Assembly: GCF_001457615.1 (NCBI RefSeq)
Contig: NZ_LN831024.1
Coordinates: 2,670,001-2,702,000 of the forward strand
Origin: Pseudomonas aeruginosa
GTDB lineage: Bacteria; Pseudomonadota; Gammaproteobacteria; Pseudomonadales; Pseudomonadaceae
Length of the DNA: 32,000 bases
Direction: 5' to 3'
Shown here: positions 18,258 to 19,885 of the stretch, piece by piece
Layout of the letters: each line of letters begins with the position of its first letter
Position numbering within the stretch: position 1 is the first letter of the stretch
Position numbers and translations under genes: made by a program
The notes under the pieces: generated by a model
What the model was told of the DNA's origin: nothing
What the model saw: only the letters and a program-made list of their open reading frames with translations
Databases searched by the model: none

Positions 18258-18940
18258 TCAGATCATTTGAAGCCCCAAGCGACCGAGGCTCGCCGCCAGT
18301 CGCAGGCGCGAGGTCTGCCAGTTGCCGAGGGCGCGGATGTGCTGGTCCTCGGCGCTGGCGTAGGCGGTCAGGGCGTTGAGCAGCTCGATCATGCTGCCGA
18401 CCCCTGAGCGGTAGCGGCCCTGCACCACCTCCAGGCTTTGCCGCGACTGTTCGACCAGTTCGCGGGTGCGCGCCAGGCTGCGGGTCTCGACGCTGAGCGA
18501 CTGGTAGTTGTTCCACACCTCCAGCGAAACCTGCTGCTCGGTGTCGGCCAGCTCCGCTTCGCTGGCTTCGCGGCGGGCCAGGGCGTTGCGGACCTGGTAG
18601 GTGCGTTCGAAGCCTTCGAACAACGGGATGTTCAGTTGCAGGCCGATGCTGCGGTCGCGTTCGCGGGTATCGCCGTTGAACGCCATCGCCTGGTCGCTAT
18701 GGCTGCGTGCCAGGTTGGCGCTCAGCGCCAGGCTCGGCCGGCCGGCGGCGCGGCTTTCCTCCACCGAGGCGGCGGCGGCTTTCAGCCGCGCCTGGGCGGC
18801 GAGCAGCGCCGGATGCTCGCGGCGGGCTTCGGCGAGCATCTCGTCGATGGCCTTGACGAAGCCGGTGTCGGGTTGCGCCTCCAGCTCGCCGGAGAGGCGC
18901 AGCGGGGTATCCGGCGCCAGGCCCATGCGCAGGGCGCACT
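18258..18940 (-). pseudogene. C-terminal half only of a TolC-family outer membrane factor (5'-truncated gene remnant)
   Basis: The 222-aa ORF ...PDTGFVKAIDEMLAEARREHPALLAAQARLKAAAASVEESRAAGRPSLALSANLA ... GRYRSGVGSMIELLNALTAYASAEDQHIRALGNWQTSRLRLAASLG aligns by eye to the second structural repeat of TolC/OprM-type proteins. No signal peptide or first repeat is present. The upstream frame hits a stop at 18999-19001. High-GC sequence ends abruptly at about 18940. Confidence 0.7.
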
Positions 18941-19054
18941 TCCGCCAAATTTTCCGAGTCCTGCACCTATAGCTCCACCAGCTCCTGTTGCTGCGGCATC
19001 AAGACTGTTTCCTCCTGACACAATATCCATCTCAATGATGCTTAGTTCGCGCAC
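18782..19054 (-). CDS. Double-glycine-leader (ColV/class II microcin-like) precursor peptide; its 3' part appears replaced by out-of-frame OMF sequence (chimeric or truncated)
   Basis: SD AAGGAG (19067-19062) lies 7 nt before the GTG at 19054. The product reads M-RELSIIEMDIVSGG|NSLDAAATGAGGAIGAGLGKFGGS. The leader fits the LSxxE[LM]xx[IV]xGG consensus and is the same length as the ColV leader MRTLTLNELDSVSGG (recalled). After codon ~39 the sequence turns GC-rich and the translation becomes Arg/Pro-rich (APCAWAWRRIPRCASP...). The ORF track starts this frame at a TTG at 19081, which has no SD. Confidence 0.55.
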   Translation of the reverse strand: MRELSIIEMDIVSGGNSLDAAATGAGGAIGAGLGKFGGSAPCAWAWRRIPRCASPASWRRNPTPASSRPSTRCSPKPAASIRRCSPPRRG

Positions 19055-19885
19055 CTGATAACTCCTTTGAGATTTTTTCAAAAGATATTAGTAAAGCGAT
19101 AATGCAAGAGCTAAGTAGTATTAGGCCGGTTGTAGATGATGACAGTTTTGCTCCTGGTGATATATCGCTATTGCCAATCAGATAGAGGCCGAATAAGCCT
19201 GTGGAGATCATGATTAGAAGCCCGCTAAGTGTTTGAATGCGTTTTCGTGGCTCTAGTTGGTTAGATTTTTCTTTGTTTAGCTCTTTAAGCGCTTTTGTTG
19301 TTGAAATAAGATGAATGATTCCTGTGTAAAATATTATGGCGCAGATTGATAATGTTGCGTCAATGGTTGCTAGCCATTTTTTCTCCATTCCTAGTTGGTC
19401 ATTGAAGATTGAGAAGAGTATGGCGATTCCCGCTCCGTAGCCGGAAATTATGAGTGTAGGACTTCTCCTGATTTTATCTATCTTGAGTTTGCTAAAATTG
19501 TGTTCTGACAATTTTATATTCCCTGCTGGTTGGGGTGGTGTGGCGTTAGTTTTTTAGCACGATATCGTTCTTGATGTGTGTAAGAGAATTCTGTGAAAAC
19601 TAATGGATTTTTCTTGCGTGAGAGGCTTTGGGTGTCATGGAGTAGACAGAAGCATGTTTGACGGTCTAGGTGGGGGCGCTTTTGAAATGCCCTTGGGAGG
19701 GGTTTTTGAAGGATGTGGAGATGTGTCGTTTCTGGCGGTTTTGGAAATTTATTATGTGCCTTGGCAGTTTTTATTCTTGAGCGTGCTGTGTTTTAGAGGA
19801 TGTCTCCAATGGCAGGTTTGCATGTATATGTAGGCGCTATGGCGGCGCGAATATACATTGCCGCCAAAGCAAACTGCTTATTCGT
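18941..19885. other. Low-GC (~35%) patch of probable foreign origin in a >60% GC chromosome
   Basis: A hand count of 19081-19140 gives 21/60 G+C, while the flanking mexS and cupin genes are visibly >60% GC. The compositional boundary is sharp at ~18940 and more gradual near 19860-19885. No integrase, transposase, tRNA or obvious flanking direct repeats were seen. Confidence 0.7.
19032..19511 (-). CDS. Low-GC 4-TM small membrane protein; candidate microcin immunity protein
   Basis: 159 codons run from a TTG at 19511; the next in-frame ATG would give 118 aa. Four hydrophobic helices are visible (TLIISGYGAGIAILFSIF; ATLSICAIIFYTGIIHLI; LSGLLIMISTGLFGLYLIG; GLILLSSCIIALLISF). The 3' end overlaps the peptide gene by 23 nt. 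The function is inferred only from context. Confidence 0.5.
   Translation of the reverse strand: MSEHNFSKLKIDKIRRSPTLIISGYGAGIAILFSIFNDQLGMEKKWLATIDATLSICAIIFYTGIIHLISTTKALKELNKEKSNQLEPRKRIQTLSGLLIMISTGLFGLYLIGNSDISPGAKLSSSTTGLILLSSCIIALLISFEKISKELSGARTKHH

Follow-up and report, generated by a model that had tools for sequence, protein, structure and literature searches.

Gene content of a low-GC patch beside mexS

The DNA analysed here (the window) comprises 32,000 nucleotides (nt) of Pseudomonas aeruginosa (NZ_LN831024.1, positions 2,670,001-2,702,000), and the element in question is a patch of about 40% GC at approximately 18935-19885, between a PA2490-like cupin gene and mexS, which contains two minus-strand open reading frames (ORFs) and appears to be what is left of a class II microcin cluster. 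Over 200-nt windows the GC content of the patch is 0.375-0.46 as opposed to 0.65-0.75 in its flanks, so that the low-GC patch pointed out in the initial annotation, a reading of the sequence alone, stands, although its composition is nearer to 40% than to the ~35% given there. Comparison loci fetched for the analysis are labelled L0xx and homologous proteins P00xx.

The downstream ORF on the minus strand encodes the beginning of a peptide with a double-glycine (GG) leader. Inspection of this strand places a Shine-Dalgarno sequence, AAGGAG (19067-19062), inside the 3' end of the upstream gene and 7 nt before a GTG start (19054), exactly as first described, and the frame reads MRELSIIEMDIVSGG|NSLDAAATGAGGAIGAGLGKFGGSA.... 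Codons 1-15 (19054-19010; MRELSIIEMDIVSGG) form the leader, which is identical in the intact alleles discussed below and fits exactly the class II microcin Motif 1, R-x-[IL]-x(9)-G-[GAS]; this motif describes a double-glycine signal of ~15 amino acids (aa), M...R-x-[IL]-x9-G-[GAS] (PMC12219008). The leader of colicin V (ColV), to which the initial annotation had aligned the peptide, is printed verbatim in the same paper (MRTLTLNELDSVSGG; PMC12219008), and comparison with it confirms the equal length of 15 aa and the identity at 9 of 15 positions. A generic GG-leader motif matches only once in the six-frame translation of the entire window, at this very site, and is found in 0.5% of 2,000 dinucleotide shuffles of the low-GC patch, which together make a chance origin of the leader unlikely.

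Codons 16-40 (19009-18935) retain 25 of the 96 mature residues of the core. After codon 40, at position 18935, the composition jumps to ~70% GC and the frame crosses the C-terminal half of a TolC-family gene in the wrong register, bearing out the earlier view of a 3'-truncated, chimeric peptide; this tail of the 90-aa ORF (18934-18782) is Arg/Pro-rich and probably meaningless. The true frame of the TolC-family gene (18936-18258, minus strand) matches Pfam OEP (E 2e-27) and positions 210-403 of the 414 in TIGR01844, and represents a pseudogene fragment with the 3' 48% of an outer-membrane factor (OMF) gene, codons 246-470 plus stop, annotated by NCBI as 'TolC family protein, partial'. Both the peptide ORF and the TolC fragment are pseudogenes, and the chimeric ORF is considered non-functional.

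The upstream ORF (19511-19032, minus strand) is intact, starts with TTG, encodes 159 aa and overlaps the peptide start by 23 nt. The ORF list and hydropathy agree with the initial description of four transmembrane (TM) helices, located at about residues 20-36, 50-69, 95-113 and 128-144, and the product, annotated by NCBI as 'hypothetical protein', is called the 4-TM protein here; its gene is a candidate cognate immunity gene.

Intact alleles and repeated loss of the microcin gene

Complete genomes carrying the entire cluster (L019-L022) were found with the protein of its JmjC gene as query. In these, the gene order is cupin (PA2490), 4-TM gene, a 111-aa GG peptide not called in the annotation, JmjC/cupin-8 (383 aa), HlyD-type membrane fusion protein (MFP, 424 aa), C39-peptidase ABC transporter (PCAT, 719 aa), TolC-type OMF (470 aa) and a convergent mexS, with mexT and mexEF beyond. 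Full-length peptide alleles occur within P. aeruginosa in L016, L019, L024 and the metagenomic L025; in the draft genome L016 the low-GC DNA continues, the peptide extends to 111 aa ending ...SRGDEAGTNYDGEGCDYH, and the JmjC/cupin-8 gene and the start of the MFP gene follow. The intact precursor consists of the 15-aa GG leader and a 96-aa core of 8,532 Da, below the 10 kDa limit for microcins, with 60% Gly+Ala+Val, 17 GxxxG pairs and one GAV motif; its isoelectric point (pI) is 4.5, as against 11.9 for the 'mature' part of the chimeric ORF. The PCAT has C39, ABC_membrane and ABC_tran domains with the catalytic Cys and His motifs, and the JmjC protein matches JmjC_2 (E 1.4e-25) and contains the HxD motif. 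No TM ORF is present in the ~100-nt gap between the peptide and the JmjC gene. The initial annotation had proposed to look for a full-length allele next to a PCAT, and such alleles exist in P. aeruginosa itself: PCAT and MFP genes adjoin the peptide in the intact allele (L019-L023) and are deleted in the window, where tblastn detected neither PCAT, MFP nor JmjC anywhere in the 32 kb, in agreement with the absence of the two exporter genes already noted.

The window is collinear with the intact L019 up to 18935 (peptide codon 40), the 120 nt from the GTG being identical, and again from 18936 (OMF codon 245/246), from where the TolC fragment aligns collinearly at 99.7% identity with the L019 OMF from L019 position 15437. 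Missing in between are ~5,765 bp with microcin codons 41-111, the JmjC, MFP and PCAT genes and OMF codons 1-245. The window differs from the intact allele by one clean deletion of ~5.77 kb, and the decayed, deletion-scarred class II microcin locus proposed initially has acquired both a demonstrated scar and an intact counterpart. The junction (18935/18936, minus strand) has a 2-nt CG common to both parental sequences within patchy similarity (12/18), and looks like an accidental microhomology or illegitimate-recombination event. It is identical in all eight other window-type genomes examined (8/8), which indicates a single ancestral deletion event. Going beyond the initial annotation, the alignment to the intact allele indicates that the TolC fragment is part of the same operon as the microcin. 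Two other origins, native DNA without relation to the cluster or a large inversion in which PA4144 took part, were considered for this fragment and rejected, as complete genomes carry the full operon beside mexS.

The microcin gene has been lost more than once. In a second group of genomes, the L-type (L001, L002 and probably L004), the DNA 13 nt past the peptide GTG is joined to the middle of the PCAT gene; the deletion ends 10 nt before the original 4-TM stop and changes the C-terminus from ...KHH* to ...KSPP*, the frame remaining open. The L-type and window-type deletions are independent, since neither can be derived from the other. In L020-L023 (~9553-9590; e.g. CP089063.2, CP199166.1) a 1-nt deletion at peptide codon 10 (GATATT to GAATT) causes a frameshift common to the four assemblies, with exporter, JmjC and 4-TM genes all kept, and in L032, a distant locus described below, the GG site of a homologous peptide is itself the insertion point of an IS3-like element. 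The microcin has been inactivated at least four independent times (two deletions, a frameshift and an insertion), and the 4-TM gene is intact each time. The L-type allele (L001 10471-11718; L004 1-1226) also has a PCAT remnant with a further internal deletion and frameshift, and its OMF of 330 aa lacks roughly residues 37-176; the PA4144-type OMF in L005, with 375 aa, lacks a different segment of ~95 aa. OMF genes of the island and of the PA4144 type seem prone to deletion.

The index blocks of P. aeruginosa assemblies that list the window allele of the 4-TM protein number 1,788, nearly all in window-type contexts, and those for the JmjC protein 238, a rough proxy and not a genome count; by this proxy, the intact or frameshifted island would be a minority state in P. 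aeruginosa. The 111-aa precursor, from either start tried (GTG or TTG), is absent from a collection of 15 billion proteins, a word-indexed protein search with the 40-aa peptide returned no candidates, and NCBIfam contains nothing for the 111-aa peptide, the sole Pfam match being Gly-zipper_Omp (E 8e-4, below the family cut-off). At the DNA level, species-representative genomes and metagenomes gave no relative of the peptide among the matches listed, a weak negative because of its Gly-rich patterns. For the JmjC protein, species-representative genomes yielded no close relative and metagenomes one P. aeruginosa-like contig (L025). A literature search found no paper describing the locus, in line with the initial annotation, which knew of no described ColV-type microcin there.

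Around the remnant, the DNA from the PA2490 stop to the 4-TM start (19885-19512, minus strand; GC 0.38-0.46) is a low-GC non-coding leader of the module and the presumed promoter region. The remnant has no notable terminator or Fur box (best Fur-box match 11/19), and Rfam and tRNA scans of the window were empty. Upstream lies a Cupin_2 gene (20260-19886, minus strand, 124 aa), PA2490 by synteny; in PAO1 the numbers PA2490 and PA2491 are consecutive (PMC3200333). On the other side mexS (17099-18118, plus strand), encoding a 339-aa zinc-type oxidoreductase and recognised by its synteny with mexT-mexEF-oprN, is convergent with the remnant.

Relation to characterised systems and hybrid origin

As judged from sequence and gene content, the characterised system nearest to the cluster is not ColV but the class II microcin locus mca (MccAB1/Mcc17978) of Acinetobacter baumannii. 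The mca locus encodes the microcin (mcaA), an immunity protein (McaI), a cupin (McaB), an MFP (McaC) and a PCAT (McaD) (PMC10333792, PMC13188072). McaB was first reported as conferring immunity (PMC10333792); later work found antibacterial activity to depend on it, saw in it a presumed modifying enzyme and assigned immunity to McaI, a small unannotated protein of 56 aa with 2 TM helices (PMC13188072). MccAB1 is Gly/Ala/Val-rich, forms amyloid and promotes biofilm independently of killing, and the EbfG peptides of cyanobacteria, which use an exporter of this type, lack antibacterial activity (PMC13188072).

Searched with tblastn against plasmids, the JmjC protein has homologues at 37-43% identity in three settings: A. 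baumannii plasmids, Moraxella catarrhalis pLQ510 and Neisseria gonorrhoeae. Over its full length the JmjC protein shares 37% identity (E 5e-101) with the A. baumannii plasmid cupin, which lies between a GA-leader peptide and HlyD and PCAT genes, and the intact P. aeruginosa allele has a ~45-kDa cupin at the corresponding position. The MFP and PCAT are 40% and 55% identical to their A. baumannii counterparts, both loci combine a GG or GA leader with a Gly/Ala-rich core, a small unannotated membrane protein adjoins the peptide in both, and the ~40% GC of the island module resembles that of Moraxellaceae. The acidic, aromatic, Cys-containing C-terminal tails (..AGNDYCEDGGNY and ..AGTNYDGEGCDYH) are alike by eye only, without statistical support. 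Unlike the mca locus, the P. aeruginosa cluster carries its own OMF, and its exporter genes are a duplicate of those of a resident high-GC type I secretion system (T1SS).

The initial label of a ColV-like system stands for the leader, the immunity-then-toxin order with overlapping ORFs (cvi-cvaC) and export by PCAT, MFP and a TolC-type channel (cvaA-cvaB + TolC), and gives way to the mca type for the system as a whole. The ColV system is without a cupin, and its Cvi protein (78 aa) is small and unrelated to the 4-TM protein. In the M. catarrhalis mcbABCI locus of pLQ510, a cupin homologue, 43% identical where it aligns, immediately precedes the MFP and PCAT genes (mcbAB); the bacteriocin and immunity genes (McbI, 74 aa), unlike those of the island, are located downstream of the exporter. 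There, too, the double-glycine bacteriocin gene overlaps its immunity gene (PMC2761928). In N. gonorrhoeae (L028, NZ_CP119142.1) an unannotated cupin homologue is followed by two GG-leader peptide ORFs; this 2.17-Mb record is filed as 'plasmid' in PLSDB and is evidently a chromosome.

The exporter genes of the island have a near-identical copy elsewhere in the chromosome. From MFP codon 28 through the PCAT gene to five codons before the OMF stop, they share 99.87% DNA identity (6 mismatches in 4,477 nt) with a second T1SS locus, and the PCAT proteins of the two loci show no difference over 719 residues. Around the second locus lie genes for an OprD-family porin, a LysR regulator and a LysE exporter as well as tyrS and acoR; it corresponds to PA4141-PA4144, described as a 'probable T1SS', and the upstream gene of that system, PA4141, has been credited with 'some homology' to CvaC (PMC5835353). 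What only the mexS site possesses is a ~2.6-kb module of ~40% GC with the 4-TM gene, the microcin, the JmjC gene and the first 27 MFP codons. The cluster is shown by these alignments to be a hybrid, a low-GC module grafted onto a duplicate of the resident PA4142-PA4144 exporter genes. The graft may have come about in one of two ways: the resident copy took the place of the exporter genes in a foreign operon, or a duplicated exporter received foreign cargo by recombination. The PA4142-PA4144 duplication is also the reason why draft assemblies break inside the exporter genes. In one assembly (L003, GCA_965233305.1) the PA4142-PA4144 region appears in many short, duplicated and frameshifted pieces, most likely a matter of error-rich assembly.

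The PA4141-PA4144 locus resembles the island in that PA4141 is a Gly-rich 99-aa peptide with a GG leader, and differs from it in lacking JmjC and 4-TM genes, with an FAD/cholesterol-oxidase-like gene instead, and in the assignment of its PA4141-like peptide to DUF5862 (E 2e-21). In the locus of this type in L005, two 99-aa peptides with GG/GA leaders (3647-3946 and 6180-6479) flank the FAD/cholesterol-oxidase-like gene, one with the leader MQLATLQELSFDEIDQVSGA|G... and no Pfam family, the other being the DUF5862 peptide (MKELNDIEVTCVSGG|T...). The PA4141-PA4144-type T1SS, for which the literature names no substrate, probably exports the two of them.

The 4-TM family and interpretation of the locus

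A word-indexed search matched the 4-TM protein only in P. aeruginosa, and tblastn against plasmids gave no match. An exhaustive HMMER search, in turn, recovered about 10 distant full-length relatives (E down to 5e-11) in a family of 140-165 aa with the common motif SG[WY]G[TA]GxAxLFxxF, for which Pfam and PDB profile searches gave only noise. One relative, P0079 (24% identity to the P. aeruginosa protein), is encoded in L032 (CP102951.1), which is probably from another Pseudomonas, in a locus with an MFP, a JmjC protein (52% identity), a PCAT (49%) and an OMF. The 3' end of this 4-TM gene overlaps by 14 nt an AAGGAG-N6-ATG start encoding MRELDVRELCVVGG, and the interrupted peptide core ends ...AGTDYSGCDYH, so that the tail AGT[ND]Y..GCDYH is common to it and the P. 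aeruginosa peptide. As this independent, divergent locus has the same overlapping pair together with JmjC, PCAT and OMF genes, the 4-TM-microcin-JmjC module recurs, and the same overlapping pair would tie the 4-TM family to the microcin system, a synteny that supports the immunity label given in the initial annotation. The L032 island is located between purA and rnr, and its IS3-like element (8475-9800) has the inverted ends TGAACGAGCCCC...GGGGCAAGTCCA.

The gene of the closest distant homologue, P0072 (L029 8001-8456, CP193793.1; 30% identity), has 45% GC, as opposed to 68% for the genome that carries it. The low-GC DNA stops directly after the conserved ...ISKE*/AAGGAG end of P0072, which may be another orphan left by the loss of a downstream microcin; the pattern is compatible with this and proves nothing. 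In the contexts examined, linkage of the family to GG peptide, JmjC and PCAT is present in P. aeruginosa and L032 and absent in L029. On an 835-nt contig of one P. aeruginosa assembly (P0001) an unrelated coding sequence (FLGHLLDRFDLELFGVTLTTHG...) upstream reads into the 4-TM frame, a replacement that may be the end of a mobile element or a rearrangement.

Working criteria for microcin immunity candidates are adjacency, a length of at most 216 aa and TM helices (PMC12219008), and the 4-TM protein agrees with them (159 aa, four TM helices, overlapping the peptide), these criteria being positional and physical only. Its position, translational coupling, topology and retention after repeated toxin loss make an immunity factor the best-supported role, a plausible and inferred one. 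We put at roughly 80% the probability that the window preserves what remains of a chromosomal class II microcin cluster belonging to the cupin-containing, A. baumannii mca-like type. By analogy with the characterised relatives, the PCAT would cut the precursor after the GG and export the peptide through MFP and OMF, the JmjC enzyme, a McaB homologue, would modify or activate it, and the inner-membrane 4-TM protein, translationally coupled to the peptide, would protect the producer. The peptide would work like an mca-type class II microcin; it is not a member of the MccV sequence family. In the lineage of the window, the ~5.77-kb deletion eliminated the toxin together with the JmjC gene and this exporter copy, and the intact 4-TM gene would persist as an orphan immunity gene against strains still making the microcin.

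A number of observations weigh against this reading. BLASTP aligns only the 14-aa leader of the A. baumannii peptide, the cores showing no significant similarity; the PA4141-like peptide likewise shows no similarity to the island peptide beyond the leader, and the 111-aa peptide matches neither Pfam MccV (PF17508), a further point on which the ColV label fails, nor Bacteriocin_IIc (PF10439) at E values up to 1. McaI (56 aa, 2 TM helices) is encoded between microcin and cupin, whereas the P. aeruginosa 4-TM protein has 159 aa and an upstream, overlapping gene. The annotation of pLQ510 splits the cupin gene upstream of mcbA (L026 39-1120) into parts of 253 aa and 102 aa, whether through a frameshift or through a sequencing error, and the plasmid confers bacteriocin production with an active McbC (PMC2761928); because McbC is active although its neighbouring cupin gene is in pieces, the cupin may be dispensable for McbC and perhaps is not universally required. 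In addition, a simple scan found no sigma-70 consensus on the minus strand, L029 has no PCAT or GG-leader peptide within 8 kb of its 4-TM homologue, and 19 sequences of the 4-TM gene vary at 3 synonymous and 5 nonsynonymous sites, a polymorphism that gives no clear sign of purifying selection, the sites being too few. Antibacterial activity, export and immunity of this system are, moreover, all inferred.

As an alternative to immunity, the 4-TM protein could assist in the membrane with maturing or exporting the peptide, or be unrelated to it, its intactness then reflecting a recent deletion and the low diversity of P. aeruginosa. The polymorphism without a selection signal, the much smaller and differently placed McaI as the validated immunity protein of the nearest characterised system, the L029 homologue outside a microcin context and the absence of a Pfam or PDB relative would all fit such a role. 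However, the accessory of a lost toxin should decay, and the 4-TM gene has stayed intact through four independent inactivations, including one in another species; the L-type deletion even stops just short of the 4-TM stop codon and leaves the frame open, and position and translational coupling match known immunity-microcin gene pairs. A role other than immunity is possible, though doubtful. Perhaps the intact peptide serves mainly as a secreted protein of structural, amyloid or biofilm function, or in signalling, and not as an antibacterial toxin, with the 4-TM protein handling self-toxicity from aggregation or having another role. The composition of its core (60% Gly/Ala/Val, 17 GxxxG pairs, one GAV motif) and the precedents of MccAB1 in amyloid and biofilm and of the non-antibacterial EbfG (PMC13188072) point that way, but the A. 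baumannii cupin partner is required specifically for killing, and repeated loss of the peptide next to a retained membrane gene is the pattern expected of a toxin-immunity pair, so that we regard a peptide of this kind as unlikely.

Two further alternatives concern the ORF in the window itself. As its leader and Shine-Dalgarno sequence are intact and the PCAT at PA4143, in strains carrying that locus, is 100% identical to the island PCAT, the chimeric 90-aa product might still be exported and functional. With 25 of 96 core residues left, an out-of-frame Arg/Pro-rich tail that raises the 'mature' pI to 11.9, the JmjC partner lost and a microhomology junction of accidental appearance, this is very improbable. 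The chance that the leader-like ORF is a fortuitous frame in AT-rich DNA is close to nil: short motifs do arise easily in low-GC DNA, but only 0.5% of the shuffles contain this one, full-length conserved alleles adjoin a PCAT and L032 has a homologous peptide with the same tail. The intact alleles already refute such a chance frame.

Returning to the microcin remnant, the kind of system is already known, and what the locus adds is the series of decay alleles, the candidate immunity family and the hybrid origin. On this reading P. aeruginosa, although among the most intensively annotated bacteria, would gain a second class II microcin-type system, and the remnant would explain the 1.8 kb of unannotated DNA between PA2490 and mexS. 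Near mexS/mexT, a locus of clinical relevance, the near-identical 4.7-kb repeat shared with PA4142-PA4144 could serve as a substrate for chromosomal rearrangement. The genotypes at hand, from producer through frameshifted and deleted to immune-only, together would constitute a natural experiment for microcin ecology, for the role of McaB-like cupins and for the candidate immunity family. More tentatively, most strains may keep an orphan immunity gene, the founder of an unrecognised 4-TM family, against an unannotated, JmjC-activated microcin that only about one in ten strains can make, with the JmjC oxygenase possibly hydroxylating its C-terminal AGT[ND]Y..GCDYH tail. If true, this would amount to a hidden intraspecific polymorphism of killer and immune strains directly beside mexS-mexT, and hydroxylation of the tail by the JmjC protein would be a modification chemistry not yet described for microcins.

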